DNA of 64,000 nt from an uncultured Flavobacteriaceae bacterium (GTDB lineage Bacteria; Bacteroidota; Bacteroidia; Flavobacteriales; Flavobacteriaceae): positions 61,272 to 125,271 of the forward strand of contig CANKUU010000010.1 in assembly GCA_947486785.1 (NCBI GenBank). The letters run 5' to 3'. A program made the position numbers and the translations under genes. Below the pieces are notes generated by a model. It saw nothing but the letters and a program-made list of their open reading frames with translations, ran no database searches and had not been told where the DNA came from. Each line of letters begins with the position of its first letter. The stretch's first letter is position 1. This document shows, piece after piece, positions 9,707 through 26,215 of the stretch.

Positions 9707-12700
9707 TTGAAAACAAAAACATTTATTTACGTATTTACGGTTTTATCTGCACTATCCTGTGTAGATAAAAAAGAGGATATTTCAAAAAAACAAGATCCTA
9801 AGAAGCAGGTTGGTTTAGATAGTAAGACCACTACATCTTTATTTACCCTATTAAACCCAATAAATACCGGAATTAATTTTATTAACAAACTCACAGAAAC
9901 CGCTGATATGAACGGCTTCTTTTATGAGTATTACTACAACGGTGCAGGTGTAAGTATAGCTGATATTAACAACGATGGTTTAAAAGATATTCTATTTATT
10001 TCTAACCTTAGAAAAAATAAACTTTACCTAAACTTAGGAGGCCTAAAGTTTAAAGATATTACTAAAGAATCTGGACTATCTGCATCAACTGGATTTAGAA
10101 CTGGCGTGACTAACGTGGATATCAATCATGACGGCTTAATGGATTTCTATATTTCTAAATCAGGAAAGTACAAGAACCCTGATAAAAGAAGAAACGAACT
10201 ATGGGTAAACCAAGGTATTGACGATTCTGGAATTCCTCTATTTAAAGAGCAAGCAGCTAGCTATAACCTAGATAGCGATATGTACTCTACACAAGCCTCT
10301 TTTTTTGATTACGATAGAGATGGTGATTTAGACATGTTTTTAATAAATCATTACATAACGCCCTTTAAGTATAGCGAGGTTGACCAATTGATAAAACAGA
10401 AAGGAAAACTAACCGGTGACCGATTATTTGAAAACGTTAATGGAAAATTTAAAGACATTACCCAACTGGCAGGCCTTACCAATACTAATAGACTAAGTTA
10501 TGCTTTAGGGGTATCAATAGGCGATGTGAATAATGATGGCTGGCCAGATGTATATGTTGCAAATGATTATGAAGGCAAAGATTACCTATACATTAACAAT
10601 AAGAACGGCACCTTTACAGACATTGCTAACACAGCCATGCAACACACTTCTTTCTATTCTATGGGCACCGATGTTGGCGACTTAAATAATGACGGATGGC
10701 TTGATATTATTACCTTAGATATGATGGCCGAAGATAATTATACTGCAAAGACGAGCATGAGCGCAATGAACACCTCTAAATTCGAAAGTGTGGTAGATAG
10801 AGGTTTGGGCTATCAATACATGTACAATACGTTGCAGATAAATAATGGTACTGTGGCAAAAAATAACTTTCCAGTATTTTCCGATGTGGCTCAACTGGCA
10901 GGAATAGCTACAACAGATTGGAGCTGGGGACCATTAATTTTTGACATGGACAACGACGGATTAAACGATATATTTATTTCTAATGGCATTAAAAAAGACT
11001 TTAGAAATAACGATTTTATATTAAAGCAGCAGCGCAGAAAAGATTCTATTAAAACAACAGATCGGTCTGCATTTATAAAAGAGGTATTACAAGAAATGCC
11101 CGAACGAAAGAAGCAAAACTATTTTTTTAAAAACAACGGCGACCTATCATTCAGTAATATGAATAACAAATGGGTGCAAGATATACCAAGCAGCTCTAAC
11201 GGAACATCTTATGCAGATTTGGATAATGATGGAGACCTAGAAATAATAGTAAACAATGCAGACGATGTATCTTTAATCTATAAAAATAATAGTAGAGAAT
11301 ATGACCTTGGAAATTATGTGAAATTTAAATTTAAAGGATCTTTAAAAAATCCAGCTGGTGTTGGCGCACGTGTGGCTCTAATATTTAGTGATAATATCCA
11401 GGTTAAAGAATTTTTCTATTCAAGAGGATTTCAATCAACTGTAGGCAATGGTCTTCATTTTGGACTCGGTCAAAAAGATACTATTCCTACCATTAAGGTT
11501 ACCTGGCCAGATGGTAAAGAGCAAATACTCAAGAATATGGTTGGCAATCGTGAAATTACTCTTGATTATAAAAATGCGGAACCATCCAACAACAATGAAA
11601 CAAAAGAATCTTTAATAACATTTAAAACCAATGGTGTATTAAATAACTCGATTACATGGAAGCATAAAGAAAATACGTTCGACGACTTTGAACGAGAATT
11701 GCTTCTACCTCATAAAATGTCGAGACTTGGCCCTGCACTAGCTGTTACAGATTATAATGGCGATGGTCTTGATGATGTATTTATAGGTGGGGCAAAAGGA
11801 CAAGCCCCAGTACTTTACCAGCAAACAACTAACGGTTCTTTTAAACCTGTGCAACAAAGTGTTTTTACAAATCAATCTGACTATGAAGATGTAAACGCAT
11901 ATTTTTTTGATATGGATCAAGACGGAGACGAAGACCTCTATATCGTTAGCGGAGGAAATGAATCTTCAGTAAACTCAGAACGTTATGAAGATCGAATTTT
12001 CGAAAACAAATCAGGTACTTTTCAACTAGTAAAAAAAGCACTTCCAAAAATATATGTAAGCGGGTCTATCATTGTACCTTTTGATTATGACGGAGATAAT
12101 GACCTTGATATATTTGTAGGAGGCAGGCAATTTCCTGGCAGGTACCCAAGCCCTGTTAGTAGTTATTTATTACGAAACGATAGTAAGCCGAATGAAATAC
12201 TATTTAAAGAGGTTAGCGCCAAAAATTTTCCTGATCTAAAGAATTTAGGCATGGTAACAGATGCCATTGCCATCGACATAGATCATAATGGCGCCAAAGA
12301 CCTAATAGTAGTGGGTGAATGGATGCCAATACGTTTATTTTTAAATAACAACAATACTTTTAAAGACGCCAGTAGCAGCTTTGGATTTGATAATACCACA
12401 GGATGGTGGAACACTATTGAGGCAGGAGATTTTGATAAGGATGGAGATTTAGACCTTGTAGTAGGTAATTTAGGTCTCAATTACAAATACAAGGCCAGTC
12501 AAGAAAAGTCATTCAATATTTATAGTGATGATTTTGACGATAATGGTTCATTTGATATTGTGCTCGGATATTATCAAGGTAATAACATATATCCTCTAAG
12601 AGGTCGCCAATGTTCATCCGATCAAATGCCTTTTATTAAAAAGAAGTTTCCGAGTTATGACGCTTTTGGAAAAGCATCCTTAGCGCAGGTCTATGGTAAC

Positions 12701-13120
12701 GAAAAATTAGATGGTGCAATAAAATATAAGGCCAAAACATTTGCATCAACATACTTTGAAAATACAGGTAAAAACAATTTCAAAGCAAAGCCTTTGCCAA
12801 ATTGGGCTCAAAAAACTTCAGTAAATGCAATAGTCTTAGAAGATTTCAATAATGATGACCATCTTGATATGTTGCTAGCAGGAAATCTGTACAATTCTGA
12901 AGTAGAAACCCCAAGAAATGATTCAGGATTTGGCACCTTACTATTTGGAGATGGCAAAGGGGCATTTCGCTCCGAAAAATTACTTAAAACCGGATTATAT
13001 ATTAATGGTGAAGTAAAAAACATAGCCAAGTTAAAAATTTCAAATAATCGAAGCGCGCTATTAGTGGCTAAAAATAATGATAGTCTTCAATGTCTAATTT
13101 GGAACAACAATGACAACTAA
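9707..13120 (+). CDS. ASPIC/UnbV (CRTAC1-like) FG-GAP/VCBS repeat lipoprotein, paralog 1
   Basis: TTG start, lipobox LSC, many DxNxDGxxD Ca-binding repeats, RGFQS...HFGLG ASPIC/UnbV segment, ETPRNDSG near the C-terminus. Confidence 0.88.
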   Translation: MKTKTFIYVFTVLSALSCVDKKEDISKKQDPKKQVGLDSKTTTSLFTLLNPINTGINFINKLTETADMNGFFYEYYYNGAGVSIADINNDGLKDILFISNLRKNKLYLNLGGLKFKDITKESGLSASTGFRTGVTNVDINHDGLMDFYISKSGKYKNPDKRRNELWVNQGIDDSGIPLFKEQAASYNLDSDMYSTQASFFDYDRDGDLDMFLINHYITPFKYSEVDQLIKQKGKLTGDRLFENVNGKFKDITQLAGLTNTNRLSYALGVSIGDVNNDGWPDVYVANDYEGKDYLYINNKNGTFTDIANTAMQHTSFYSMGTDVGDLNNDGWLDIITLDMMAEDNYTAKTSMSAMNTSKFESVVDRGLGYQYMYNTLQINNGTVAKNNFPVFSDVAQLAGIATTDWSWGPLIFDMDNDGLNDIFISNGIKKDFRNNDFILKQQRRKDSIKTTDRSAFIKEVLQEMPERKKQNYFFKNNGDLSFSNMNNKWVQDIPSSSNGTSYADLDNDGDLEIIVNNADDVSLIYKNNSREYDLGNYVKFKFKGSLKNPAGVGARVALIFSDNIQVKEFFYSRGFQSTVGNGLHFGLGQKDTIPTIKVTWPDGKEQILKNMVGNREITLDYKNAEPSNNNETKESLITFKTNGVLNNSITWKHKENTFDDFERELLLPHKMSRLGPALAVTDYNGDGLDDVFIGGAKGQAPVLYQQTTNGSFKPVQQSVFTNQSDYEDVNAYFFDMDQDGDEDLYIVSGGNESSVNSERYEDRIFENKSGTFQLVKKALPKIYVSGSIIVPFDYDGDNDLDIFVGGRQFPGRYPSPVSSYLLRNDSKPNEILFKEVSAKNFPDLKNLGMVTDAIAIDIDHNGAKDLIVVGEWMPIRLFLNNNNTFKDASSSFGFDNTTGWWNTIEAGDFDKDGDLDLVVGNLGLNYKYKASQEKSFNIYSDDFDDNGSFDIVLGYYQGNNIYPLRGRQCSSDQMPFIKKKFPSYDAFGKASLAQVYGNEKLDGAIKYKAKTFASTYFENTGKNNFKAKPLPNWAQKTSVNAIVLEDFNNDDHLDMLLAGNLYNSEVETPRNDSGFGTLLFGDGKGAFRSEKLLKTGLYINGEVKNIAKLKISNNRSALLVAKNNDSLQCLIWNNNDN

Positions 13121-16100
13121 GATTCTACATATAATTGGTATTTGCTCTCTTTTAATGGTTTTAAGTGCTTGTAACAAAGCTAAAAACCAAAAACTTTTTG
13201 TTCCTATTTCCGAAAAAGATAGTGGCATTTCGTTTTCAAACAACCTAATAGAGAGTGATACACTAAATTATTTCTTATACAAAAATCTATATAATGGGGG
13301 TGGTGTAGCAATTGGTGATATAAACAATGATGGTCTTCAAGATATTTATTTTACGGGTAATATGGTACCCAACAAGCTATACCTAAATAAGGGAAATCTA
13401 CATTTTGAAGATATCTCCGAACTAGCAGGTGTATCAGGTGATTCTAGATGGATGACTGGTGCAACTATGGCAGACGTGAACCAAGATGGATTTTTAGATA
13501 TTTATGTATCCGTTGCGGGGGTTTGGAATACACCAAAAAACATACTTTACCTGAACGATGGAAACAAAAATGGAGTTCCAACTTTTACCGAGTCTGCAGA
13601 AAGTTTAGGTGTTGCCGACCTTGGAAATAGTACTCAAGCCACATTTTTTGATTACGACCTTGATGGAGATTTAGACTTATATGTGGCCAATTATCCTGTG
13701 GTAGATATAAAAACTGGCGTTATGAATTATCGTTTTTATATGGATCACGTACATAATGGAGTGAGTGATCATTTATACAAAAATGAAAATGGATTATTTA
13801 TTGATGTTACTGAACAAGCAGGTGTGCTAAGCTATGGACTATCTTTAGGTGCCTCTGTAGCCGACTTCAATGATGATGGCTGGCCAGATCTATATGTTTC
13901 AAACGATTTTGCTACACCAGATTATTTTTATCTAAACAATGGTGACGGTACGTTTTCTGAACATTCAAAAGAAACCACTTCGCACACGTCTTTCTTTGGT
14001 ATGGGCATCGATGCAGCCGATATAAATAATGATGGATTAATGGATTTTTTACAGCTTGACATGACTCCTGAAGACAATTTTAGGTCTAAAGCTAATATGG
14101 GTAGTATGGACATACCTGCTTTTTGGGCTATGGTAAATAATGGAATGCACTATCAATACATGAAAAATTCACTTCAACTGAATAATGGCAATAATTCGCT
14201 TGGACAACCACAATTCTCCGAAATATCTAAACTAAGTAACCTTGCCCTAACAGATTGGAGTTGGGCACCGCTTATTGCAGATTTTGATAACGATGGATGG
14301 AAAGATATATTCATTTCAAATGGGTCTCGTAGAGAGTTAAACAATAAAGATTTTTTTAAAGAAATGAATAAAGATAAGGAACAGAATAAACACCTCTTAT
14401 CTTGGGTAAAAAAAATGCCCGAAGAAAAAATACCTAATTACGCTTTTAAAAATAAAGGAGGTATTGATTTTGAAAATATCGCACCCCAATGGGGGCTTGA
14501 TTTTAAAGGATGGACAACGGGTGCTTCTTATGCAGATTTAGACAATGATGGAGACTTAGATATTGTGATCAACAATGTAGATCAAACAAGCATGGTTTAC
14601 GAAAATCATTCAACAGATCGCAAAAATTCAAACTCAATTAGTATCGTATTAAACGGCTCAGACCAAAATAAATTTGGAATAGGAAGTAAAGTAAGCCTTT
14701 ACAATGATGGTAAGCAGCAATATCAAGAACTAAATTTAAGCAGAGGTTTTCAATCTTCTGTAGCTCCAACGATTCACTTCGGCTTAGGAAAAAACAAAAT
14801 TATAGATTCTCTAAGAATCCAATGGCAAGACGGCTCTAGTGAATTATTAAAATCTATTGAAGCGAATAAAAAACTTACCATTAGCCATAAAAATGCTAGT
14901 AAAACCAATAATCAAACAAATACGCATCAAAAAAAAGACCTATACTTTAAAGACATAACCGACACTATTGGTCTTAGCCATAGACATGAAGAAAACTATT
15001 TTGATGATTTTGAACATCAAATTTTATTACCTCACAAAATGTCTCAATTTGGTCCAGCATTGGCAGTAGGTGATATAAATGCAGATGGTTTAGATGATTT
15101 CTACGTAGGGGGTGCAAAAGGGTTTAAGGGAGAAATTTTTATGCAAAAAGCCAACGGAACATTTAAGAACGTAACCCAACCTATTTTTGAGGAACACAAA
15201 ACTCATGAAGATGTAGACGCAATTTTCTTTGATGCTGATGGTGATAACGACCTAGACCTCTACATCGTTAGCGGTGGTAACGAATGGAAAGAAGGAGACC
15301 CTTTCTACCGCGATCGGCTTTATGAAAATAATGGAAAAGGACTATTTACAGAGGCTGAAAATGCTCTTCCATTAATGCATGAGAGTGGATCAGTTGTTAA
15401 ACATGCAGATATTGACGGTGATGGAGACCAAGACCTATTTGTAGGCAGCCGTTTACTTCCTCGCAAATACCCCTTGTCTGGCAAATCTTATATACTTAGA
15501 AACGATAGTAGAAAAGGGCAGATAAAATTTACAGATATTACCATGCAAACAGCACCAAAACTATCCTCGGCAGGTATGGTAACAGATGCTATTTGGGCGG
15601 ATATTGATACTGATGCCGATTTAGATTTAATACTCACCGGAGAGTGGATGCCAATTACAATTTTCATTAATACTGACCAACACTTTAGCGATGAAACAGA
15701 ATCATATAATCTTCAACATCAAACAGGATGGTGGAACTGCATAGATGCACAAGACTATGATGGCGATGGCGATTTAGATCTTGTAGCGGGAAATTTGGGT
15801 GAGAACTACAAATACACCGCATCTAAAAATGAACCTTTCAGTATTTATGTAAATGATTATGATAAAAATGGGGCGATGGACATCGTACTTTCATATATTC
15901 AAAACGGAGAAGAATATCCACTTCGCGGCAAGCAATGTTCCTCTCAACAAATACCCGTAATTTCTATAAAGTTTAAAGATTATAACTCCTTTGCAAAAGC
16001 AAGCCTAGCCGATGTGTACTCAAAACAGTCTCTGTTAGAATCGAAACAATTTAAGGCTACCAATTTCGCTACAAGTTATTTCGAAAATAAAAATGGAACT

Positions 16101-16439
16101 TTTAAAATAAGACCCCTAGAGAAAATGGCACAAATTAGCTCGGTAAATTCTATTCATTCAGAAGATATCAATGGAGATGGAATATTAGATCTAATTTTAG
16201 CGGGAAATCTTTATGGTTCGGAAATAGAAACACCCAGAAATGATGCCTCTTATGGACTAAGCTTACTAGGCGATGGAAAAGGTTTCTTTGTAACACAACC
16301 AGCTATAGAAAGCGGTTTACTGATAACAGGTGAAGTACGCCAAATTAAGCCAATAAAGGTATCTAATAGAAAAAAATCACTGCTAATAGGTAAAAATAAT
16401 AGTACGCTAACCATCTTAGACATAGATTCTAAACTTTAA
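13110..16439 (+). CDS. ASPIC/UnbV (CRTAC1-like) FG-GAP/VCBS repeat lipoprotein, paralog 2
   Basis: Lipobox LSAC; same repeat architecture and shared blocks with paralog 1 (LLPHKMS, YPLRGxQCSS, ETPRND); 11-bp overlap with paralog 1. Confidence 0.88.
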   Translation: MTTKILHIIGICSLLMVLSACNKAKNQKLFVPISEKDSGISFSNNLIESDTLNYFLYKNLYNGGGVAIGDINNDGLQDIYFTGNMVPNKLYLNKGNLHFEDISELAGVSGDSRWMTGATMADVNQDGFLDIYVSVAGVWNTPKNILYLNDGNKNGVPTFTESAESLGVADLGNSTQATFFDYDLDGDLDLYVANYPVVDIKTGVMNYRFYMDHVHNGVSDHLYKNENGLFIDVTEQAGVLSYGLSLGASVADFNDDGWPDLYVSNDFATPDYFYLNNGDGTFSEHSKETTSHTSFFGMGIDAADINNDGLMDFLQLDMTPEDNFRSKANMGSMDIPAFWAMVNNGMHYQYMKNSLQLNNGNNSLGQPQFSEISKLSNLALTDWSWAPLIADFDNDGWKDIFISNGSRRELNNKDFFKEMNKDKEQNKHLLSWVKKMPEEKIPNYAFKNKGGIDFENIAPQWGLDFKGWTTGASYADLDNDGDLDIVINNVDQTSMVYENHSTDRKNSNSISIVLNGSDQNKFGIGSKVSLYNDGKQQYQELNLSRGFQSSVAPTIHFGLGKNKIIDSLRIQWQDGSSELLKSIEANKKLTISHKNASKTNNQTNTHQKKDLYFKDITDTIGLSHRHEENYFDDFEHQILLPHKMSQFGPALAVGDINADGLDDFYVGGAKGFKGEIFMQKANGTFKNVTQPIFEEHKTHEDVDAIFFDADGDNDLDLYIVSGGNEWKEGDPFYRDRLYENNGKGLFTEAENALPLMHESGSVVKHADIDGDGDQDLFVGSRLLPRKYPLSGKSYILRNDSRKGQIKFTDITMQTAPKLSSAGMVTDAIWADIDTDADLDLILTGEWMPITIFINTDQHFSDETESYNLQHQTGWWNCIDAQDYDGDGDLDLVAGNLGENYKYTASKNEPFSIYVNDYDKNGAMDIVLSYIQNGEEYPLRGKQCSSQQIPVISIKFKDYNSFAKASLADVYSKQSLLESKQFKATNFATSYFENKNGTFKIRPLEKMAQISSVNSIHSEDINGDGILDLILAGNLYGSEIETPRNDASYGLSLLGDGKGFFVTQPAIESGLLITGEVRQIKPIKVSNRKKSLLIGKNNSTLTILDIDSKL

Positions 16440-16533: not shown

Positions 16534-18990
16534 ATGAAGCAAAAAGTTAAAACAATACAAAACAAGAACCTCATACTATTGGTTATATCATTGTTGTTTT
16601 TTAGCTCGTTGAAAGCCCAAGATAATGACATAAAACTTTGGTATGAAACGCCGGCAGATTTACCCATGTTTGGCATTAAGGATACAGTTAAAGATTCTGG
16701 TGATATTATTGCCGGGGTAATGTCTATGCCAGATCTATGGCGTGACAACCCCAATTGGTTATCGGCGCTACCTCTTGGAAACGGTTCATTGGGAGTTATG
16801 GTTTTTGGTGGAGTTAAACGTGAGAGAATACAGCTGAATGAAGAAAGTATGTGGTCAGGAAGCCCACAAGATAGTGACAACCCTGAAGCCTATAAACACC
16901 AAGCTAAAATAAGAGAATTACTTTTTGAAGGAAAATACAAAGAGGCAACAGCACTTACTCATAAAACACAAATTGCAAAAGGACTAGGTTCGGGTAGAGG
17001 AAATGGAGCAACTGTACCTTTTGGATGTTTTCAAACCATGGGAGACTTATGGCTCGATTTTGAAAATAAGGCAGATTTTACCAACTATAGAAGAGAACTA
17101 GACCTCGAAGATGCTGTTGTAAGAATAACGTATACCCAAAATAATATCAATTATAAACGAGAATTTTTTATTAGTACACCCGATCAAGTACTTGTAGGTC
17201 GTTTTACGGCTGACAAGCCAGGAAGTATCTCTTTTAGTGCTACTATGAGCCGACAAGAGCGTTTTACAACAAATACTCAAGATAATGAACTTGTTATGTT
17301 TGGTAGCTTGAGTGATGGCAAAGGGGGCAACGGACTAGAATATATGACCAGATTAAAAACCTTAACTAAAAATGGAAAAATAACATACGGAAACCAAAAT
17401 ATCACCATAAAAAATGCAGATGAAGTAACCTTAATTCTTTCGGGCTCTACTGATTACAAACTAGAATATCCGCATTACAAAGGGCGTGATTATAAAAAAA
17501 TCACTAAAAATAATATTGAAAAAGCAGCTGTTACCCCATGGAAAACCCTTCTCGATAGACATTTGAAAGAATATCAACCCTATTTTAATAGGGTAACTTT
17601 TGATCTAACACCCAATACAATTATTCCTACACCCACAGATAAACGATTAGCGAACTTTAAAAAAGATAAAAAAGACCTACGATTACAAGAACTTATTTTT
17701 CATTACGGGCGCTATTTATTAATAGCTGCATCAAGACCTGGCACCTTACCTGCCAATCTGCAAGGTATATGGGCAGATAAAATACAAACGCCTTGGAATG
17801 GTGATTATCATACAGATATAAACCTAGAAATGAATTATTGGCTCTCTGGACCTACTAATTTATCTGAAATGCAACTGCCCATGTTCGATCTTATACAATC
17901 ATTGGTCGCTCCTGGAAAAAGAACTGCAAAAATTCAGTATCAAAAAAATGGATGGGTGGTTCACCCAATTACAAACGTATGGGGGTATACTTCCCCAGGT
18001 GAAAATGCCACTTGGGGTATGCATACCGGCGCAGGAGCATGGATTAGCACGCATATTATGGAGCACTACCGATTTACTGGAGACACTAACTTTCTTAAAA
18101 AAATGTATCCTGTGTTAAAAGAGTCTACGTTATTTTATATGGACTGGTTAGTAGAAGATCCGAAGAGCGGCAAATTGGTTTCAGGACCCGCAGTTTCGCC
18201 CGAAAACACCTTTATTGCACCAGATGGAAGCCACAATCAAATAAGTATGGGCCCTGCACATGACCAACAAGTAATATGGCAATTGTTTACCGATTTTATT
18301 TCAGCATCAAAAATTTTAGGTAACCACAATAAATTTTCAAAACAAGTAGCAAAAGCTCGCGAAAAATTAGCTGGCCCTAAAATAGGTTCAGATGGTAGGC
18401 TTATGGAATGGGCTGAAGAATTCCCAGAAGTAGAACCAGGCCACCGACACATGTCTCATTTGTTTGCTCTACATCCTGGAAACCAAATCAACTGGAATGA
18501 AACTCCTAAATTGGCGAAGGCAGCAAAAAAATCTCTAGATGTTAGAATACAAAATGGGGGCGGCTATACCGGGTGGAGTACTGCATGGCTAATTAATCAT
18601 TATGCTCGTTTGCATGAAAGTGAAAAGGCGAAAGAAAGTTTAGATATAATTATTTCTAGAAGTACGTCAACAAATCTTTTTGGTCAACATCCTCCTTTTC
18701 AAATTGATGCAAATTTTGGCACCACAGCCGGAATGGCTGAAATGCTTTTACAAAGCCACTCTGGACTTATTGAACTACTTCCAGCGCTTCCTGTTTCCTG
18801 GGCTAACGGCACCGTTAAAGGCCTAAAAGCAAGAGGTGGTTATACCGTTGATATGTTATGGATGAATGGAAAACTAAAAAAAGCTACTATTCTTGCTAAA
18901 AATAAAGGCAAACACCAAATAAAATATAAAAATACCCTGCGCGAAATATCTTTAGAAGCTGGAGAAATTTATGAATTTACTTTAGAGTAA
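16534..18990 (+). CDS. GH95 alpha-L-fucosidase / alpha-L-galactosidase
   Basis: ALPLGNG, IQLNEESMW, YGRYLLI, PANLQGIW, YHTDINLEMNYW, SPEN, HRHMSHL, FQIDANFG, ELLPALP, GLKARGG; signal peptide. Confidence 0.93.
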   Translation: MKQKVKTIQNKNLILLVISLLFFSSLKAQDNDIKLWYETPADLPMFGIKDTVKDSGDIIAGVMSMPDLWRDNPNWLSALPLGNGSLGVMVFGGVKRERIQLNEESMWSGSPQDSDNPEAYKHQAKIRELLFEGKYKEATALTHKTQIAKGLGSGRGNGATVPFGCFQTMGDLWLDFENKADFTNYRRELDLEDAVVRITYTQNNINYKREFFISTPDQVLVGRFTADKPGSISFSATMSRQERFTTNTQDNELVMFGSLSDGKGGNGLEYMTRLKTLTKNGKITYGNQNITIKNADEVTLILSGSTDYKLEYPHYKGRDYKKITKNNIEKAAVTPWKTLLDRHLKEYQPYFNRVTFDLTPNTIIPTPTDKRLANFKKDKKDLRLQELIFHYGRYLLIAASRPGTLPANLQGIWADKIQTPWNGDYHTDINLEMNYWLSGPTNLSEMQLPMFDLIQSLVAPGKRTAKIQYQKNGWVVHPITNVWGYTSPGENATWGMHTGAGAWISTHIMEHYRFTGDTNFLKKMYPVLKESTLFYMDWLVEDPKSGKLVSGPAVSPENTFIAPDGSHNQISMGPAHDQQVIWQLFTDFISASKILGNHNKFSKQVAKAREKLAGPKIGSDGRLMEWAEEFPEVEPGHRHMSHLFALHPGNQINWNETPKLAKAAKKSLDVRIQNGGGYTGWSTAWLINHYARLHESEKAKESLDIIISRSTSTNLFGQHPPFQIDANFGTTAGMAEMLLQSHSGLIELLPALPVSWANGTVKGLKARGGYTVDMLWMNGKLKKATILAKNKGKHQIKYKNTLREISLEAGEIYEFTLE

Positions 18991-19031: not shown

Positions 19032-20270
19032 TTAGTACTCTTTTAAATCGGCACTCATACCAGGTTCTTGAGGAACTTGATATTTAGAATTTTTTATTCG
19101 TACAGGATATTTAAAATAATCTTTTAAATGTGGAATATGTTCCAAAAGTAATGCTGGATGCCCTAAAGTAATATGATTAAAAAGCACCAAATGTTGGTGA
19201 ATTTGGCCCATATCGCCAACATGAGGAACTACTGGAACATTAAATTTTCTAGACAATAAACTGATAAGGATAAATTCGGATACACCCCCTACTCTAACGG
19301 CATCTACTTGATTGAAAGATACACAGCCCGATTGTAAAAAGTTTTTAAAAATTATTTTATTAGGTACGTGCTCACCTAAAGCTAATTTTACATCTACTTT
19401 TTGTGCTAAGGTTACATGAGCAGCTACATCATCAGGATGTGTGGGTTCTTCAATCCATAATGGATTTAATTTCTTTAGCTCTTCACACATAAAGATGGCC
19501 TCAGGCAAATTCCATTGCTGATTAGCATCGAACATAATCGTTGCGTTGTCACCCGCAATTTTTCGTACTAGCTCTGCCCTTCTTAAATCTACATTTGAAT
19601 CCTTTGAACCTACTTTCAATTTCATTGCCGTAAAACCCTGACCCATAGCAGATTTTATATTTTCAGCTACTTGGCTATCACTATAGTTAAACCAGCCTAT
19701 AGAGGTGTCATACCCAGGATAACCCTCTGCTAATACACGCTTTCGCAGTTCTTCACCAGAGCGTTGTGCTTCTAATAACTTTATAGCTTCTTGTTTGGTT
19801 AATACTTCCTCAAAATAAGAAAAATCTAAGGTATTAATTAAAGCTTCAGGCGAAAGATCAATCAATAGCTTCCAAAGTGGAACACCATGCGCTTTTGCCC
19901 ATAAATCATAACAGGCATTTACTACGGCAGCTAACGCTAAATGTATGACGCCTTTGTGCGGCCCAAGCCAACGAAAATTAGGGTCATCTGCCATTTTTTT
20001 ATAGCATGCTCCAAAATTAGCCATCAGTTCGTTAATCTCCTTGCCTTCAATATGAGTTACTAAATAGTCTATAGCCTGGCAAACGAGTTGATTACCATGT
20101 CCTAAGGTAAAAGCTAATCCAATACCTTCTAACTTTCCATCAGTTTGCAAATGACATACTGAGTATGCATAAATTGGGGTACTATGCACAGCATCTGAAC
20201 CTGCACCACCCTTTAATTCGAAACGCTTATCCGAAGCGAATCCTTTTATTATCTTAACTAATTTAATCAT
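19032..20270 (-). CDS. fucD: L-fuconate dehydratase-like enolase-superfamily enzyme (FucD/ENOSF1 type)
   Basis: GSDAVH, RWLGPHKGVIHLALAAVVNA.YDLWAK, KLKVG, DANQ.W, WIEEPTHPDD, GEH, PHVG match FucD/rTS-beta as I recall them. Confidence 0.82.
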   Translation of the reverse strand: MIKLVKIIKGFASDKRFELKGGAGSDAVHSTPIYAYSVCHLQTDGKLEGIGLAFTLGHGNQLVCQAIDYLVTHIEGKEINELMANFGACYKKMADDPNFRWLGPHKGVIHLALAAVVNACYDLWAKAHGVPLWKLLIDLSPEALINTLDFSYFEEVLTKQEAIKLLEAQRSGEELRKRVLAEGYPGYDTSIGWFNYSDSQVAENIKSAMGQGFTAMKLKVGSKDSNVDLRRAELVRKIAGDNATIMFDANQQWNLPEAIFMCEELKKLNPLWIEEPTHPDDVAAHVTLAQKVDVKLALGEHVPNKIIFKNFLQSGCVSFNQVDAVRVGGVSEFILISLLSRKFNVPVVPHVGDMGQIHQHLVLFNHITLGHPALLLEHIPHLKDYFKYPVRIKNSKYQVPQEPGMSADLKEY

Positions 20271-20393
20271 GATAGTTTTACTTTTTTACCTGAGCTATAT
20301 TTTAAATTATTCAAAAACGCTAAGCGTATTTTTTAGAAAACATAGCTACTTCATATTGTTTTTGAAATAAAAGTGCATCTTTATTTTTTTTCT

Positions 20394-21905
20394 TTACTCT
20401 ACTGCTGCCTTATAAAGTCCAAATTCTGCAATTCTAGGGCTTTTTCTAGCTTCTAAAATAGTTAACCTTGTCTTTTTAGCCTTAACTGGATCAAAGCGAA
20501 GTAACCTTTTATAACCAATAGTAGTTCCTTCACATATAAGCATCCACTTTCCATTTACCTCAGCTTCAAATTTAAATCGCTCTACACGTTGCCCTGTGGT
20601 GATTTGTTCTTGAAGAAGTAAACGATCAAAAGTTTTTGCTTTTGGTAATACAATACTAAGCTCTAGCTGGGTAGAATTTTCTGTTGCTAACCAAGCGGTT
20701 TTAATATTTTTATCAAAGAGTACTTTGGCATTGCTTGGTATGCCAGTGCTTTTAACGATAGCTTTACTTGCTAAATTATGTTCGAATGTTTTTTTTATTC
20801 TATGATTCCATGCCTTTAAAGTTGCTACATCTCTATCTTGGATAAGGCCTCTAGTATCAGGAGGAATATTTAATAATAATACAGAATTTTTTCCAACCGA
20901 ACTGTAATAAATATCCATAAGCTTGTCCACACTTTTAACCGCTTTATCTTGGTTTTTATGATAAAACCAACCCGGGCGTATAGAAACATCAACCTCTGAA
21001 GGATACCATACAAGTCCGCTTGCATCGTACAATTGTTCTCTACTTCCGATATCTGCAGCCATAAAATCTAATACTGGCCTAAAAGTACCTGCTGCCTGTT
21101 GAGATGCTGCTGCGATAGCATCCTCTTCTTGGCTACTTGTAGGTACTACGCTCCATTCGGTATCCCTTCCATAACCAGATTCAGTTCCAACCCAGCGTAC
21201 ATCTGGCCCTATAACTGCTATCACAGCATTTGGCTGAAGTTTACGAATGGTGGAGTAATACCGTTGCCAATCATATTCTTGTTTTTTTCCATTAGGGCCT
21301 TCTCCGTTGGCGCCATCGAACCAAACCTCAGCAATGTCGCCATATTGAGTGAGTAATTCGGTCAATTGATTTATAAAAAAATCATTGTAAGCCTGTGTTC
21401 CATACACTTTACTATTTCTATCCCATGGAGATAGATAAATGCCCAATTTAATATCATACTTTTTACAGGCCGCTGCTAATTCTTTAACCACATCGCCGTT
21501 TCCATCTTTCCAAGGGCTACTTTTTACCGAATGATTTGTGAATGCACTAGGCCATAAACAAAAGCCGTCATGATGTTTGGCGGTAAGAATAATCATTTTC
21601 ATACCCCCTTCTTTGCATGCTTTTACCCATTGCTCGGCATCTAATTCGGTCGGATTAAAAAGAGCAGGATCTTCTGTACCATCTCCCCATTCACGGTCTG
21701 TAAAGGTATTTATACCAAAATGTAAGAACGTAGTAAGCTCTAACTCTTGCCAGGCTAACTGTTTTGCGCTGGGGCGAACCATAGCAGCTTTCTCAATAAT
21801 TGTTTCACGACTGTCTTCTGGCAGTATTTTAGTTACTCCTACCTGTGCTTTTATATGCGACAAACAGATGAAAAAAAAGATAAAAAAAAGCAATTTATGT
21901 GTCAT
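20394..21905 (-). CDS. GH29 alpha-L-fucosidase (subfamily B-like) with C-terminal F5/8-type C/CBM32-like domain
   Basis: FLHFGINTF, LTAKHHDGFCLW, YLSPWD, VWFDGA (nucleophile), RWVGTESG, DVSIRPGWFYH. ATG at 21905 gives a clean signal peptide (the track uses TTG 21929). Confidence 0.93.
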   Translation of the reverse strand: MTHKLLFFIFFFICLSHIKAQVGVTKILPEDSRETIIEKAAMVRPSAKQLAWQELELTTFLHFGINTFTDREWGDGTEDPALFNPTELDAEQWVKACKEGGMKMIILTAKHHDGFCLWPSAFTNHSVKSSPWKDGNGDVVKELAAACKKYDIKLGIYLSPWDRNSKVYGTQAYNDFFINQLTELLTQYGDIAEVWFDGANGEGPNGKKQEYDWQRYYSTIRKLQPNAVIAVIGPDVRWVGTESGYGRDTEWSVVPTSSQEEDAIAAASQQAAGTFRPVLDFMAADIGSREQLYDASGLVWYPSEVDVSIRPGWFYHKNQDKAVKSVDKLMDIYYSSVGKNSVLLLNIPPDTRGLIQDRDVATLKAWNHRIKKTFEHNLASKAIVKSTGIPSNAKVLFDKNIKTAWLATENSTQLELSIVLPKAKTFDRLLLQEQITTGQRVERFKFEAEVNGKWMLICEGTTIGYKRLLRFDPVKAKKTRLTILEARKSPRIAEFGLYKAAVE

Positions 21906-21934
21906 TTCAATTTTATTTAATTCGTACAAATTTA

Positions 21935-23002
21935 TTAGAGTGATACACCGCCAATATTATTTGAAATATAAGCCGCTTCTACAAGTTTCATAGTATTATA
22001 GGCATCTTCAGTACTATTATTTAAGGGTATACTACTATCATTCATATGGTTTTGAAGTACGGCCATAGATCCAATAAAAGCATGAGGAAACCATCCGCCT
22101 ACAAGCGGCAATTCTTTCCAAGCAGTAGCTTTACCTTCATTTAGTAAACAGTACTCAAATAGTGGTGGCAAACCCTTTGGATAATTTAGCGAAAGTCCTA
22201 TTCTAATCTTTATAGCCCCTTTAGTACCCTCTATTTTTAAATAAGACTCTTGCTTATCATGACCGTAAACATGACCATGATTAGTTAGTATTCTTGCTTG
22301 TAAAAACTTGGAGTAATGAAGAATCATCGTAGATCGGGTCTGAGAAAGGTCTGGTGTATTTGGATGTGGAATGGTACTTGCCATTATTTGATTTGGATTA
22401 CCTAAAAATGAGCGTATGACATCCAAATAATGTATACTATGATACAAAATCTCTACCCGCGGCAAACCTTTTAAAAAATCCCATAAATGCCATGGTGTGT
22501 GAACACAAACTTTTAGTTCAATATCAAAAACTTCACCAAGTAAACCCTGGCTAATCATATCTCTTGCAGCTATACAATAGGGAGCATATCGAAGTTGAAA
22601 ATTAACAGCAGATTTTAAATTTTTAGTTCTACAGATTTTGAGAATTTCCTCACATTCTTCTAAATTATTACCCATCGGTTTCTGAATAAGAACACCTGAA
22701 TTATCTGGAATTTGCCTAAGAATAGCACTAATGTGGTTTGCAGGCACCGCTAAATCGTAAATAGCATTCTGTGCTTGTGCATCTATGATAAGCTTATCTA
22801 GAGTTTCGTATGCTTGACCAACTTGGGCAAAATCATTTACCAAACTATTCGCCTTAGATACATCTACATCAAATACTCCTAAAACCGAGTAATTGGCAAG
22901 TTTATATGCGGGTAAATGGGCATCTCTTACAATACCACCAGCTCCAATTATAACAATGGGTCTTGGTTTTTTAGGCTTTGGTATTTGTTGTTTTATTCTC
23001 AT
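21935..23002 (-). CDS. Gfo/Idh/MocA family NAD(P)-dependent oxidoreductase
   Basis: Rossmann IIGAGGIV..AHLPAY, QKPM (EKP-like), VNFQLRY, HSIHYLD; no signal peptide; ATGA overlap with the upstream gene. Confidence 0.85.
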   Translation of the reverse strand: MRIKQQIPKPKKPRPIVIIGAGGIVRDAHLPAYKLANYSVLGVFDVDVSKANSLVNDFAQVGQAYETLDKLIIDAQAQNAIYDLAVPANHISAILRQIPDNSGVLIQKPMGNNLEECEEILKICRTKNLKSAVNFQLRYAPYCIAARDMISQGLLGEVFDIELKVCVHTPWHLWDFLKGLPRVEILYHSIHYLDVIRSFLGNPNQIMASTIPHPNTPDLSQTRSTMILHYSKFLQARILTNHGHVYGHDKQESYLKIEGTKGAIKIRIGLSLNYPKGLPPLFEYCLLNEGKATAWKELPLVGGWFPHAFIGSMAVLQNHMNDSSIPLNNSTEDAYNTMKLVEAAYISNNIGGVSL

Positions 23003-23649
23003 TTTAATGCGATCCGTTCAAGTTCTTTCCATTTTTCAAGGGCCTTGGTTTCTGGGTTGGTTCTTTGAAATTTAGCGACATAAGCTTGCCATTCTTGTTC
23101 TTGAGGCATTGCTGCCCATTTTGCGCCATCTTTTTCCATATCAAAATAGAGAGGCAAATCCATAATCATAAAAGCCGTATAGCCTCTTAAATAAATTTCT
23201 AAATTTAAAATACCCATGGCATTCATGTTCTCCACTATTTTAGGCCATATATTTTCTGGTTGGTGTACGTTCTTATAGCATGCTAAGAGGTCTTTATCAT
23301 GTTTTAATTCGAGTGTAAAAACTTTTCGCTTACATTCACTGTACTTTTGGGTATTTAACTGCTTAGCTTTCGGTTTTTGAAAACAAGGAATTAAGGGCTC
23401 GTCTAGCCCCTTAAAGTCTATGGATGTACCAACAAGATCTTTTGTATCCACCTCATTAACTACCCTTCTACTCGATACAACAGCATCTATATTCGCTTTT
23501 AAGTCTACTAGTACAAAGTAACCTCCTATTGTTTTAAAGGCTTCTATGGTATATTTTGTGTTTATCGCTGAATTTGAAACTAATACAGAAAAACGTTTTT
23601 CAGCTACAGCGTTATCAAAACTAAAACAATATCGACTTCGTTGATTCAT
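22999..23649 (-). CDS. L-rhamnose/L-fucose mutarotase-like (RhaM family) protein with ~105-aa N-terminal extension
   Basis: C-half KRKVFTLELKHD...YKNVH...IWPKIV...GILNLEIYL...QEWQ...EKW is RhaM-like; the N-half is unexplained. Confidence 0.72.
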   Translation of the reverse strand: MNQRSRYCFSFDNAVAEKRFSVLVSNSAINTKYTIEAFKTIGGYFVLVDLKANIDAVVSSRRVVNEVDTKDLVGTSIDFKGLDEPLIPCFQKPKAKQLNTQKYSECKRKVFTLELKHDKDLLACYKNVHQPENIWPKIVENMNAMGILNLEIYLRGYTAFMIMDLPLYFDMEKDGAKWAAMPQEQEWQAYVAKFQRTNPETKALEKWKELERIALK

Positions 23650-23655
23650 TCTTTC

Positions 23656-25254
23656 CTAGTAAAATATAGTATAAATGACCAGCATTATTACTATTAGTAA
23701 CATAGATAACCAAGACACCATTTTATCAGCACCATTTATCTTCAAATAAAATGATTTTGGAATATTACTTTTAGAATTATCAAAGTAAGATACCAAAAGG
23801 TAAATCAGCGTAGCGATAATAAAGAAAATATAAGTTTGCCGAAGCCAATGTATGCCAAGACCGTTGGGGCTTGAAATATAGTTTTCAACACCATTAATAG
23901 GCAGGTATTTCTCTACTAAAAATACGATGGCTGCTATAAAACTTCCTCCAATCAATGTAAAAAAAGAGGCATTCGCAGTTCCCTTTTTAGACACTACACC
24001 CCACAAAAATACGGCTACTATAGATGGAGCAAAGATGGAGAACATTTGATTAATCAATTCGAAAATTCCACCCAGATTTCCAATAAAAGGAGACCATGAT
24101 ATTGCTAAAATTAACACTAAAGCACCTGAAACTCTTCCTATGTATAACTTTTGCTTATCGGTGAAATTATACTTCAATTTTTCGAAGACGTCATAAACAA
24201 TAAGTGTAGAGCAGCTATTCAAAGCAGCAGCAACACTACTCATTACGGCTGCCAGCAAGGCGGCAACCATTAAGCCTCGGAAACCTATTGGCATTAATTT
24301 CAAAATCATCGTGGGGAGTACACTTCTAGTATTATCTCCGATATCCGATTGAAAGAGAGCGAATGCTAAAATTCCTGGCAACACCATAATAAATACGGGT
24401 AAAATTTTTAAGAAACCCGCAAAAATGGCACCTAATTGAGCTTGCTTCTCTGATTTTGCCCCTAGTGCTCTTTGCACTATAGTTTGATCGGTACACCAAT
24501 ACCAAATACCAAGCACTAAATGACCAAAAAGGAGGTCGAAAAAGGTAAATCCTTTCACGTTTGCATCAAAAGAAACCGCTTTTAATCGATCTGGATTAAC
24601 CGCTAATTCAAATGCTTCATAACTAGTAATACCCACTTCAGGCAAGTGAAAAATAGCCAATATGGTTAATGTTAGCGAACCAATGATTAAAATTATAGTT
24701 TGTAACGCCTCAGTTACTACTACAGATGTTAATCCACCAATGATGGCGTAAAGACCAGTAGCTACACCAATAATGATTATAGACCATATGATATCAAGAC
24801 CAAAGATATTTTCAAAAACTACGGCACCAGCATAAAAACTTACTCCAATATGCATAAATAGTGCTGCAAGTATACTAAAGATAGCTAAAACCACTCTAGA
24901 TCTACCGTCATATCGCTTTTCTAGAAATTCAGGTAATGTGGTAATTTTAGTTCGAATATAGAAGGGTACAAATAGAAATGCTAGTATTAATAACTCAAAT
25001 GCCGAGAACCATTCAAAATTACCCCAAACAATACCGTCCTTAAAACCAGATTCTGCCAATCCTACCAAATGCACGGTAGAGATATTTGAAGCAAATAAAG
25101 AAGCACCAATGATAGACCAGGTTAATGATTTACCAGCCATAAAATACCCCTTTGCAGTATCCTTCTTTTTTCTACCAGACCATAAACCCACCACAATCAT
25201 GGCAAGGATATAAATTATAATTATTGCTAAATCGATGGGTGATATTGTACTCAT
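23656..25254 (-). CDS. Sodium:solute symporter (SGLT-like sugar transporter)
   Basis: YFMAGKSL, SLFASNIS, TLPEFLEKRY, GGLTSVVVTE, WYWCTDQ.IVQRAL, AAVMSS; many hydrophobic helices. Confidence 0.93.
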   Translation of the reverse strand: MSTISPIDLAIIIIYILAMIVVGLWSGRKKKDTAKGYFMAGKSLTWSIIGASLFASNISTVHLVGLAESGFKDGIVWGNFEWFSAFELLILAFLFVPFYIRTKITTLPEFLEKRYDGRSRVVLAIFSILAALFMHIGVSFYAGAVVFENIFGLDIIWSIIIIGVATGLYAIIGGLTSVVVTEALQTIILIIGSLTLTILAIFHLPEVGITSYEAFELAVNPDRLKAVSFDANVKGFTFFDLLFGHLVLGIWYWCTDQTIVQRALGAKSEKQAQLGAIFAGFLKILPVFIMVLPGILAFALFQSDIGDNTRSVLPTMILKLMPIGFRGLMVAALLAAVMSSVAAALNSCSTLIVYDVFEKLKYNFTDKQKLYIGRVSGALVLILAISWSPFIGNLGGIFELINQMFSIFAPSIVAVFLWGVVSKKGTANASFFTLIGGSFIAAIVFLVEKYLPINGVENYISSPNGLGIHWLRQTYIFFIIATLIYLLVSYFDNSKSNIPKSFYLKINGADKMVSWLSMLLIVIMLVIYTIFY

Positions 25255-25255
25255 A

Positions 25256-25888
25256 TTATGGTTTATAATGAAGTATAACAGTATTGTAGGCTCGTAATCC
25301 TTTAGGTGTCAGATGAGGCACAACTAAGCTCCATATATAAAAAGACATGCGATTATGCTCATCTTCCTTATAACCGGGCATTACTTCTTCTTGAGGCTTC
25401 CAGAATGTTATTAAGACCCTTATGGTATGTAACAATCTTAAATACATGCCGCTTAGAAGTTCTTCCTTTAGATAACCAAAAGATGTAAACCTATCGTAAA
25501 CCATCTTTATTTGTTCTTTACGAAGCAAGAAGGTTTTATCCAAAAGCACCTTTATTTTAGGATAGTTTCTAGTAATCTCAAGAACATCTAAATTAAAAAA
25601 AGAATATTTCGCCTGAAAATTTTCTAAATGAAGCAACAACCTATGAAAATGAAGCATAGGATCAGTGTTTTCATCAATGTTAGCATATGCAGCCGAGATA
25701 TTTTTTCGCATTTTTTGATAAATCGCCAAAAGCAGATCCTCTTTTGTGGGAAAATAATATTCTAAATTACCGTGACTTATGCCAAGCTCATTTGCCAAAA
25801 AACGGCTAGTAACATTAGCCATACCATGCTGGTTATAGGCCTCTACCGCTTTAAAAATAATTTTTTCTTTAGTTTTTACCTGCGTCAT
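25256..25888 (-). CDS. TetR/AcrR family transcriptional regulator
   Basis: TKEKII..A...YN..G..NVT...LA.ELGISHGNLEYYFPTKEDLL helix-turn-helix; 1 bp from the SSS start. Confidence 0.92.
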   Translation of the reverse strand: MTQVKTKEKIIFKAVEAYNQHGMANVTSRFLANELGISHGNLEYYFPTKEDLLLAIYQKMRKNISAAYANIDENTDPMLHFHRLLLHLENFQAKYSFFNLDVLEITRNYPKIKVLLDKTFLLRKEQIKMVYDRFTSFGYLKEELLSGMYLRLLHTIRVLITFWKPQEEVMPGYKEDEHNRMSFYIWSLVVPHLTPKGLRAYNTVILHYKP

Positions 25889-25900
25889 TATACTGCAATA

Positions 25901-25934
25901 TATAAAAATTAGGGCATATGCCCTAATTTTTATA
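25901..25934. promoter_or_regulatory. Perfect 34-bp palindrome, candidate TetR operator
   Basis: TATAAAAATTAGGGCATATGCCCTAATTTTTATA is its own reverse complement and lies 12 bp upstream of the tetR ATG. Confidence 0.7.
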
Positions 25935-26139: not shown

Positions 26140-26141
26140 CG

Positions 26142-26215
26142 CGGTCTGGACGGGACTCGAACCCGCGACCCCCTGCGTGACAGGCAGGTATTCTAACCAA
26201 CTGAACTACCAGACC
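26142..26215 (-). tRNA. tRNA-Asp (GTC)
   Basis: Minus strand GGTCTGGTAGTTCAGTTGGTTAGAATACCTGCCTGTCACGCAGGGGGTCGCGGGTTCGAGTCCCGTCCAGACCG; cloverleaf, anticodon GTC, CCA not encoded. Confidence 0.97.

Follow-up and report, generated by a model that had tools for sequence, protein, structure and literature searches.

A TetR-headed operon of a Flavobacteriaceae bacterium with a candidate Gfo/Idh/MocA-type dehydrogenase for oxidative L-fucose catabolism

Introduction

Fucoidans have fucose as their main sugar, and their slow breakdown is of consequence for carbon storage in the sea. The subject of this work is a stretch of 64,000 nucleotides, called the window below, of the genome of an uncultured Flavobacteriaceae bacterium (3.57 Mb, 99.8% complete, ca. 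35% G+C), comprising positions 61272-125271 of contig C10. It contains an operon coding for a TetR-family regulator, an SSS symporter, a double-length mutarotase of the RhaM type, an oxidoreductase of the Gfo/Idh/MocA family (Gfo hereafter), an exported GH29 alpha-L-fucosidase, and the L-fuconate dehydratase FucD. The reading we favour, by little more than an even chance, is that Gfo acts as a parallel L-fucose 1-dehydrogenase in a TetR-autoregulated upper-pathway operon of oxidative L-fucose catabolism.

The oxidative L-fucose pathway, described for Xanthomonas campestris, Burkholderia multivorans (BmulJ_04915/04919), and Herbaspirillum huttiense (route III), comprises six steps, catalysed by a mutarotase, a 1-dehydrogenase, a COG3618 lactonase, FucD, a 4-dehydrogenase of 2-keto-3-deoxy-L-fuconate (KDF) belonging to the short-chain dehydrogenases/reductases (SDR), and an FAH hydrolase. 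Candidates for all six are present in the source genome. However, while the Xanthomonas type has one cluster, here the genes are spread over three contigs, and beyond Gfo only FucD and the mutarotase lie in the window operon. Further differences are the uptake by an SSS symporter under TetR and the operon dehydrogenase itself. The L-fucose dehydrogenases named so far are of the SDR type (two lineages), the aldo/keto reductase (AKR) type, and an archaeal MDR type (PMC6336799, PMC13406643); the operon oxidoreductase, devoid of an SDR domain, falls outside the canonical SDR class (BmulJ_04919 type, NCBIfam NF052481). Leyn et al. (2017) predicted a non-orthologous dehydrogenase, "FucO-II", in Algoriphagus marincola, which may or may not belong to the Gfo family. 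Surveys identify fucose users by a set of KO terms, namely K18333 for the SDR dehydrogenase, K18334, K18335, K07046, K18336, and K01685 (PMC13668718).

Among Gfo/Idh/MocA proteins, aldose 1-dehydrogenases are represented by the D-xylose enzyme Gfo6 of Haloferax, the D-galactose enzyme 4EW6, and 5YAB, the scyllo-inositol/L-glucose dehydrogenase of Paracoccus. The L-arabinose 1-dehydrogenase of Azospirillum is another. The window protein shares with them the two-domain fold (TM 0.75-0.79 for its AF2 model), the conserved lysine of the E/Q-K-P motif, the C-terminal His/Asp pair, and the genomic pairing with a lactonase and a dehydratase, but the similarity is remote (E 1e-5 to 1e-10, 12-20% identity) and glutamine takes the place of glutamate in its QKPMG motif. 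The best solved relative by both profile and fold is the 5UHW-5UIB series, a Gfo/Idh/MocA protein of Agrobacterium radiobacter with NAD+ and Mg, although the identity is 19%. The logic of the pathway is already known; what is new is an orphan Gfo clade whose genes come together with those of an SSS importer, a double FucM, and a TetR regulator that has a predicted operator.

Gene organisation of the operon

The annotation covered open reading frames (ORFs) of at least 100 amino acids in the window. Six of them, all on the minus strand, form one unit, and the domains of all six proteins score above the Pfam curated cut-offs:

25256-25888, minus: TetR-family repressor, first gene of the operon (Pfam TetR_N 37.8 bits, TetR C-terminal domain 62.1 bits)
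23656-25254, minus: SSS/SGLT-type sodium:solute symporter (Pfam SSF 245 bits, TIGR00813 328 bits)
22999-23649, minus: double-length RhaM-family mutarotase, FucM-like, 216 amino acids (Pfam rhaM PF05336 70.6 bits)
21935-23002, minus: Gfo/Idh/MocA oxidoreductase, 355 amino acids (PF01408 36.8, PF22725 32.5, PF02894 30.0 bits)
20394-21905 (ORF to 21929), minus: GH29 alpha-L-fucosidase with a C-terminal F5/8 type C (CBM32-like) domain (Alpha_L_fucos 137.9 bits, F5_F8_type_C 31 bits)
19032-20270, minus: MR/MLE dehydratase, predicted L-fuconate dehydratase FucD (full-length match to ENOSF1 and Xanthomonas FucD)

A first interpretation, made from the letters alone (the sequence-only reading), had described a TetR-led, tightly coupled operon of a non-phosphorylative fucose type, with no lactonase, SDR, FAH, or aldolase in the window. 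Direct reading of the sequence bears out the gene order and the coupling: the gap between the TetR and SSS genes is 1 bp and that between the SSS and mutarotase genes 6 bp, while the mutarotase and Gfo genes share an ATGA overlap. GH29 follows Gfo after 5 bp if its TTG start is taken and after 29 bp from the ATG at 21905, the likelier start, as it opens a clear signal peptide; FucD comes 123 bp further downstream. None of the four enzymes said to be missing is encoded by the annotated ORFs of the window, and the fucose-type identity of the operon is supported as well.

The same gene order recurs in four further loci (L012, L013, L014, and L040), so the arrangement is not due to chance. The symporters of these orthologous operons are 73-77% identical to that of the window, which is a putative L-fucose importer, judging by its gene context. 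GH29 occupies the same position in L012-L014, yet it is of a different GH29 lineage, with 28-38% identity.

The oxidative pathway in the source genome

The dehydratase, called FucD-like in the sequence-only reading, proved to match true L-fuconate dehydratases over nearly the full length: human ENOSF1 (4A35) with E 8e-111 over residues 13-411 and Xanthomonas FucD (1YEY/2HXT) with E 2e-96 over residues 22-409, with the remaining acid-sugar dehydratases far behind (E 1e-29 or worse). Its motifs KLKVG, DANQQW, WIEEP, GEH, QVDAVR, and PHVG align with identical motifs of ENOSF1. According to the literature on residue roles, catalysis in the mandelate racemase (MR) subgroup of the enolase superfamily relies on a KxK motif as the base, on three carboxylates that bind the metal, and on an Asp-His dyad; the corresponding KxK, D/E/E, and D...H motifs are all aligned in the window protein. 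By sequence, the window protein is a genuine L-fuconate dehydratase FucD. It is 70-76% identical across the orthologous operons.

Genes for the steps that the operon lacks lie at other places in the genome. A search of all contigs for Amidohydro_2 located on contig C21 a row of genes facing an AraC regulator, which codes for a UxaA-like dehydratase, a 223-amino-acid ORF, a COG3618 lactonase, an SDR, an MFS transporter, a sulfatase, FGE, and galactokinase. The lactonase has 4DLF/4DO7 as its sole PDB match (1e-49) and is the only close homologue of L-fuconolactonase in the genome; its best NCBIfam match is L-fucono-1,5-lactonase (FuconLaconase), whose cut-off of 400 bits it does not reach, with 259 bits. 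For the SDR, the NCBIfam FucosDh score is 350 bits (cut-off 300); it gives E 8e-74 with 4GKB/4GVX, the L-fucose dehydrogenase of Burkholderia (PMC13406643), and is, as far as sequence tells, a canonical L-fucose dehydrogenase. The transporter of the MFS type is identified as FucP by a score of 535 bits (cut-off 280). A search for FAH gave an SDR-FAH gene pair at C1:459342-461001. The SDR of this pair matches 8Y11, the KDF 4-dehydrogenase of Herbaspirillum (PMC13406643), with 2.6e-42 and BDH2 with 4.7e-40, and its FAH protein matches the L-2,4-diketo-3-deoxyrhamnonate hydrolase 8GSR with 1.5e-76. By stereochemical reasoning, the substrate of 8GSR and the diketone derived from fucose should be identical.

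A search of the genome, which is 99.8% complete, for the FucI and FucU domains (PF02952, PF05025) gave no match, while control genomes did; the phosphorylative FucI/FucK/FucA route is accordingly rejected. Since the lactonase, the SDR, the KDF dehydrogenase, and the FAH hydrolase were found and FucI and FucU were not, the genome is predicted to encode a complete oxidative fucose pathway, and no phosphorylative one, over three loci on C10, C21, and C1. All of these genes, FucD included, are single copy; taken together, there are two dehydratases (FucD and the UxaA-like one), two transporters (SSS and FucP), one lactonase, and one KDF dehydrogenase-FAH pair. The search for amidohydrolase, SDR, and FAH genes had been proposed along with the suggestion that the lower pathway might be either elsewhere or novel. 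The former turned out to be the case and the latter is ruled out, the apparent gaps in the pathway being ordinary scattering of genes over the genome.

In the relatives G492 and G493, which have the window operon as well, the counterpart of the C21 row codes for AraC, an LgoD-like Zn-dependent alcohol dehydrogenase (Zn-ADH), UxaA, UxaB, the lactonase, the SDR, and FucP. It is a fucose/L-galactose cluster with a branch from L-galactonate through tagaturonate to altronate. In the source genome this cluster is partly decayed at C21:18320-21307 (locus L004:4321-7308), between intact AraC, UxaA-like, lactonase, SDR, and FucP genes. Residues ca. 4-79 of Zn-ADH survive at C21:18320-18535 and residues ca. 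4-149 of UxaB at C21:20789-21223, the 223-amino-acid ORF being a UxaB stump that matches positions 1-141 only of the 482 of tagaturonate reductase. With the L-galactonate branch decayed, the window FucD is the only intact and clearly assignable L-fuconate dehydratase in the genome, and the C10 operon and the C21 cluster are complementary for the dehydratase step.

The Gfo/Idh/MocA oxidoreductase

Gfo carries three Gfo/Idh/MocA Pfam domains above the cut-offs, an N-terminal Rossmann part being followed by a C-terminal alpha/beta part. Prediction of a signal peptide was negative, pointing to a cytoplasmic protein, and no paralogue is present in the source genome. More than 100 proteins are 57-68% identical to Gfo, all named just "Gfo/Idh/MocA family"; homologues of at least 57% identity occur in Maribacter, Polaribacter, Flagellimonas, Echinicola, Algoriphagus, Portibacter, and others, and the Protein Atlas likewise yields generic family names only. 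All NCBIfam matches are below threshold, including that to the D-xylose 1-dehydrogenase Gfo6 (1.6e-10). Against solved structures the best E value is 1e-10 for the single sequence and 9e-18 for the family profile, with 13-20% identity, and the weak matches include the D-galactose 1-dehydrogenase 4EW6 and the L-glucose-oxidising 5YAB.

The QKPM motif, pointed out in the sequence-only reading, is real. In 61 aligned family members Q107-K108-P109-M110-G111 is invariant, with glutamine replacing the usual glutamate of E-K-P, and so are N134, Q136, R182, E184, S189, H191, Y192, D194, R197, and H242. D45, at the end of strand beta-2, is near-invariant in the same alignment and probably favours NAD+ as the cofactor.

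The AF2 model of Gfo (pLDDT 96.5) gives Foldseek TM scores of 0.73-0.82 with many Gfo/Idh/MocA structures. 5UHW heads the list, and next come 1,5-anhydrofructose reductase, aldose-aldose oxidoreductase, NAD-dependent glycosidases, and scyllo-inositol/L-glucose dehydrogenase; as modelled, the fold does not discriminate between functions. The presence of NAD-dependent glycoside hydrolases among these matches (8QC2, 8QC5, and 8ZN9, TM 0.78-0.79), together with the cytoplasmic location of Gfo and the position of its gene downstream of a transporter gene, would agree with an NAD+-dependent glycosidase (GH109-, GH4-, or sulfoquinovosidase-like) whose substrate would be a small fucoside or a modified glycoside taken up through the SSS symporter. 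This is very improbable, as these matches are no better than those to dozens of dehydrogenases, the Gfo family is linked to lactonases and acid-sugar dehydratases rather than to glycoside loci, and the mutarotase of the operon implies a free reducing sugar as the substrate.

Another reading is that Gfo has a sugar acid or a keto-deoxy intermediate as its substrate and opens a side route, as an oxidoisomerase-type enzyme or a 4-/5-dehydrogenase of L-fuconate or KDF. 5UHW, crystallised with NAD+ and Mg, is the closest solved relative by profile (over nearly the full length) and by fold (TM 0.79-0.82), its series presumably includes sugar-acid complexes, and Gfo is always found near acid-sugar enzymes. 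However, Gfo and 5UHW share only 19% identity and Gfo/Idh/MocA folds all score alike (TM 0.73-0.79). Moreover, a dedicated KDF dehydrogenase is already present in the genome, and a lactonase and a neutral-sugar permease occur together in several Gfo clusters that, apart from Gfo, are devoid of any enzyme capable of lactone formation. An acid-directed Gfo is thus considered unlikely.

Gene neighbourhoods of the Gfo family

The neighbourhoods of 51 Gfo loci from genome and metagenome collections, together with regions from order- and class-level genome samples, were read, with neighbour genes classed by BLAST against the reference proteins of the source genome and by Pfam. In a maximum-likelihood tree the family splits into fully supported clades, each pure in its gene context. 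Clade A (45 tree rows, SH-aLRT 100) contains the window Gfo and every homologue that reaches 57% identity, over 100 proteins from marine Flavobacteriaceae, Cyclobacteriaceae, and their relatives. In all five members with a readable context (the window, L012 of Maribacter, L013, L014 of Wocania, and L040, which ends after Gfo) the order is TetR, SSS, double RhaM, in three of them a sulfatase, then Gfo, GH29, and FucD. The inserted gene, absent from the window operon, codes for an S1 sulfatase of the lipoprotein (SpII-like) type with a signal peptide and suggests that the operon serves sulfated fucans. It lies between the mutarotase and Gfo genes in the following places:

L013:6759-8291, S1 sulfatase
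L014:8397-9965, S1 sulfatase
L040:2704-4278, S1 sulfatase

A sister clade of Chitinophagaceae and Cytophagales, whose members are 45-53% identical to the window Gfo, carries a distinct module coding for a MaoC hotdog protein, an SBP_bac_1-like protein, two family-III CoA-transferases, a divergent COG3618 lactonase, a RhaT-/ureide-permease-like transporter, and Gfo (L018:3761-11053; also L019, L020, L022, L023, L029, L038, L045, L069, and L070). We know of no pathway that it fits. Like the window operon, the module is sited in or beside fucose loci, often next to canonical fucose genes and GH95 (e.g., L069 and L070), but it is devoid of FucD, TetR, SSS, and GH29; no copy of it was found in the source genome. 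At L038:11223-15873 and, in the same order, in L023, the sister-clade Gfo is directly followed by genes coding for a RuBisCO-like protein, a four-carbon acid-sugar kinase (SBD_N/NBD_C), an Asp/Glu racemase-family protein, and an SBF transporter, a set reminiscent of tetronate- or apiose-type acid-sugar pathways.

Outside these two clades, Acidobacteriaceae have an operon of Gfo, KDF dehydrogenase, FucD, and FAH genes, with unrelated genes upstream and a lactonase and an MFS transporter ca. 9 kb away; in the Silvibacterium genome no orthologue of the SDR-type fucose dehydrogenase (SDR-Fdh) was found, the best match having 31% identity. In the Bacteroidia genome G228 the FucD, KDF dehydrogenase, FAH, lactonase, and Gfo genes are consecutive, and SDR-Fdh was not found there. 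Two Chitinophagaceae loci (L030:5761-11071 and L050) comprise an AraC-controlled set of an SMP30 lactonase, a KDPG-type aldolase, an MR/MLE dehydratase 26% identical to FucD, an MFS transporter, and Gfo as the sole oxidoreductase; from its predicted enzymes, the set makes up a compact route of the Entner-Doudoroff kind, for a sugar as yet unassigned.

The context of the family is recurrent in Bacteroidota, Acidobacteriota, and Mesorhizobium, being made up of lactonases (COG3618 or SMP30), acid-sugar dehydratases, and genes of the lower fucose pathway; the adjacency to lactonases and acid-sugar dehydratases extends over at least three phyla. The shared theme is a sugar permease combined with either a lactonase or a pathway that consumes a lactone, the pattern expected of an aldose 1-dehydrogenase. 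The proposal of the sequence-only reading that Gfo is a new sugar 1-dehydrogenase thus gains plausibility from a family that, in several phyla, adjoins lactonases, FucD, the FAH hydrolase, and KDF dehydrogenase, and the Gfo clade probably consists of aldose 1-dehydrogenases for a fucose-type sugar.

Gfo homologues were found in 5 of 200 genomes sampled from the order and 11 of 300 from the class, and only the source genome's own exceeded 53% identity; clade A is sparse in these samples. Relatives from the same family (genus g2) have the sister-clade Gfo module only and no FucD. This, with the clade-A operon found in none of 200 other genomes of the order, suggests a lateral arrival of the operon, which perhaps compensates for the decayed C21 cluster.

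Role of Gfo beside the canonical SDR dehydrogenase

In the proposed mechanism the operon would be an uptake and upper-pathway module of oxidative L-fucose catabolism attached to a fucoside polysaccharide-utilisation locus. L-Fucose would be freed by the periplasmic GH29 together with the neighbouring GH95, brought in with Na+ by the SSS symporter, and converted from the alpha to the beta anomer by the FucM-like mutarotase. Gfo would then oxidise beta-L-fucopyranose at C1 to L-fucono-1,5-lactone, probably with NAD+, and the lactone would be opened by the C21 lactonase homologue or by spontaneous hydrolysis. FucD would give KDF, from which the C1 SDR and FAH pair would produce pyruvate and L-lactate. 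The C21 SDR with FucP would constitute a second route, Gfo being under separate TetR control.

Several observations weigh against this mechanism. A lactonase gene is absent from the operon itself, and 5UHW, the best profile and structural match of Gfo, is annotated in the PDB simply as an oxidoreductase with NAD+ and Mg; the substrate of 5UHW may be a sugar acid and not an aldose. No paper linking Gfo/Idh/MocA proteins to fucose was found in the literature. In G228 an AKR gene lies beside an SSS gene ca. 5 kb from Gfo and could supply the first enzyme there; for the source genome an AKR-type fucose dehydrogenase is not supported, as the AKRs found there are only 25% identical to that of G228, in a comparison that was not a full Pfam census of AKRs. 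Finally, the canonical enzyme is a regular companion of Gfo: an SDR-Fdh orthologue (54-72% identity) is present in all three other genomes with the clade-A operon, along with the lactonase, the UxaA-like dehydratase, and FAH, and SDR-Fdh occurs in 10 of the 11 sampled Bacteroidia genomes with a Gfo homologue, often within 10 kb. Gfo occurs without it only in Silvibacterium, Mesorhizobium, and possibly G228.

This systematic co-occurrence rules out replacement of the SDR by Gfo in Bacteroidota, and the presence of both in all three relatives with the operon makes Gfo a parallel first step rather than a substitute. The sequence-only reading held that its proposal would fall with a canonical fucose dehydrogenase operon elsewhere and a dispensable Gfo; the first half of this is found, in the form of the C21 SDR, and the proposal as a whole is partly supported. 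Coexistence could mean that the two enzymes are isofunctional under different regulators and with different cofactors, that they serve different sugars, or that Gfo has another role.

Plain redundancy would be odd, so a different substrate of Gfo is possible. Gfo may be the 1-dehydrogenase of another fucose-configured sugar (L-galactose, D-arabinose, 6-deoxy-L-talose, or a fucose with methyl or other modifications, set free from algal glycans), with FucD dehydrating the resulting acid and the C21 SDR taking L-fucose. FucD reportedly also accepts L-galactonate and D-arabinonate. Two dehydratases and two transporters against one lactonase and one KDF dehydrogenase-FAH pair look like two upper branches leading into one lower pathway, and in G493 SDR-Fdh is found directly with FucP, FAH, and KDF dehydrogenase, which marks the SDR as the L-fucose enzyme there. 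On the other side, the GH29 of the operon, the exported sulfatase of three relatives, and the adjoining GH95 all point to fucose itself, whereas the L-galactonate route (LgoD-like Zn-ADH, UxaB, and UxaA) sits in the SDR cluster of the relatives, so that this cluster, not the Gfo operon, is the better candidate for the other sugar. For these reasons, and given FucD, L-fucose is ranked first as the substrate of Gfo and another fucose-configured sugar second, as a possibility to be reckoned with but a rather doubtful one. If the substrate were a modified fucose or L-galactose, the operon would stand for a sugar route that is so far undescribed in marine bacteria.

With L-fucose as the substrate of Gfo, clade A would be an independently evolved, previously unrecognised NAD+-dependent L-fucose 1-dehydrogenase, and the wider family would supply the first step of several undescribed deoxy-sugar routes, including a CoA-dependent one; the chances of this broader proposal are evenly balanced. 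Were it true, many marine Bacteroidota would have an unlisted first-step enzyme, a Na+ symporter, and a TetR regulator with a predicted operator, fucose users in the sea would be under-counted by KO-based calls seeking the SDR-type enzyme only, and L-fucose dehydrogenase would have had another independent origin after the SDR, AKR, and MDR types.

The double-length mutarotase

The RhaM family and FucM are typically built of a single homodimeric domain of ca. 105 amino acids, a norm from which the window mutarotase departs: its Pfam RhaM domain spans only residues 108-213 of 216. The FucM-like assignment has a precedent in the RhaM-fold L-fucose mutarotase FucM (Watanabe et al. 2020, as cited in PMC11199699). 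The C-terminal half resembles FucM of Acidovorax avenae (7BYU) in its RhaM fold, its Tyr/His pair, and its place in an oxidative fucose operon, but the protein is twice as long, with a weakly conserved N-terminal half. Y125 and H129 (YKNVH) are invariant in six homologues. The AF2 model has a pLDDT of 73 overall and ca. 89 in the C-terminal half, which matches YiiL 1X8D, RhaU 2QLW, and 7BYU with TMt 0.71-0.79 (0.79 to 7BYU), while the whole model is closest to tandem two-domain proteins of the ABM fold.

The N-terminal ca. 105 residues (window 22999-23322) are poorly conserved, with R6, E36, and L86 invariant besides the start methionine. They are predicted with low confidence as beta-alpha-beta-beta, with a poorly modelled, disordered stretch at residues 53-81, and may tentatively represent a degenerate second ferredoxin-like half. 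The model looks like a single-chain RhaM pseudo-dimer rather than a homodimer. The extra half is common to homologues of 220-225 amino acids in the orthologous operons, Flagellimonas, and Seonamhaeicola. A second, single-domain RhaM gene is located at C2:59544-59861 (115-amino-acid frame, 106 bits), its neighbours including genes for a 1056-amino-acid protein and several proteins of 320-380 amino acids.

TetR and its putative operator

TetR has the features of its family, i.e., a helix-turn-helix and a ligand domain, and there is a palindrome at its own promoter:

25901-25934, no strand: putative TetR operator, perfect 34-bp palindrome (100% complementary arms)

It consists of two 17-bp arms with no spacer, has the core TTAGGGC-N4-GCCCTAA, and ends 12 bp 5' of the tetR ATG. 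The core is kept 5' of tetR in L012 and L013 and has two changes in L014; in the whole 3.57-Mb genome the perfect core is single copy. TetR orthologues of 52-56% identity head the same operon in L012-L014 and L040. TetR is, by prediction, a local autoregulator of its own operon, given the conservation of the operator core before tetR and the uniqueness of its perfect copy, and its leading role, read from the letters alone, is strengthened. A wider TetR regulon is ruled out by the single perfect core; of sites with two mismatches ca. 10 are expected, assuming uniform composition, and three are seen. One of them, ATAGGGCTACTGCCCAAA at C1:457961-457978, lies 1.4 kb upstream of the KDF dehydrogenase-FAH pair, within the 5' end of the ORF of an LRR protein, and is most likely due to chance.

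Surroundings of the operon

Scans for sigma-70 promoters and terminators were uninformative, with fewer matches than expected from shuffled sequence; the promoters of Bacteroidota differ from the sigma-70 model. Upstream, the boundary of the operon is set by a tRNA gene, and downstream it adjoins a convergent SusC/SusD-GH95 fucoside locus, which also encodes a GH2-like protein beside its FG-GAP/ASPIC pair and in which SusC, SusD, and this pair serve glycan uptake:

26141-26215, minus: tRNA-Asp, then a hairpin and a T-run (ARAGORN and sequence reading)
16534-18990, plus: GH95 alpha-L-fucosidase, last gene of the convergent locus (Pfam GH95 catalytic domain 557 bits)
9707-16439, plus: two FG-GAP/ASPIC propeller proteins (Pfam)
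7896-9629, plus: SusD (Pfam)
4860-7880, plus: SusC (Pfam)

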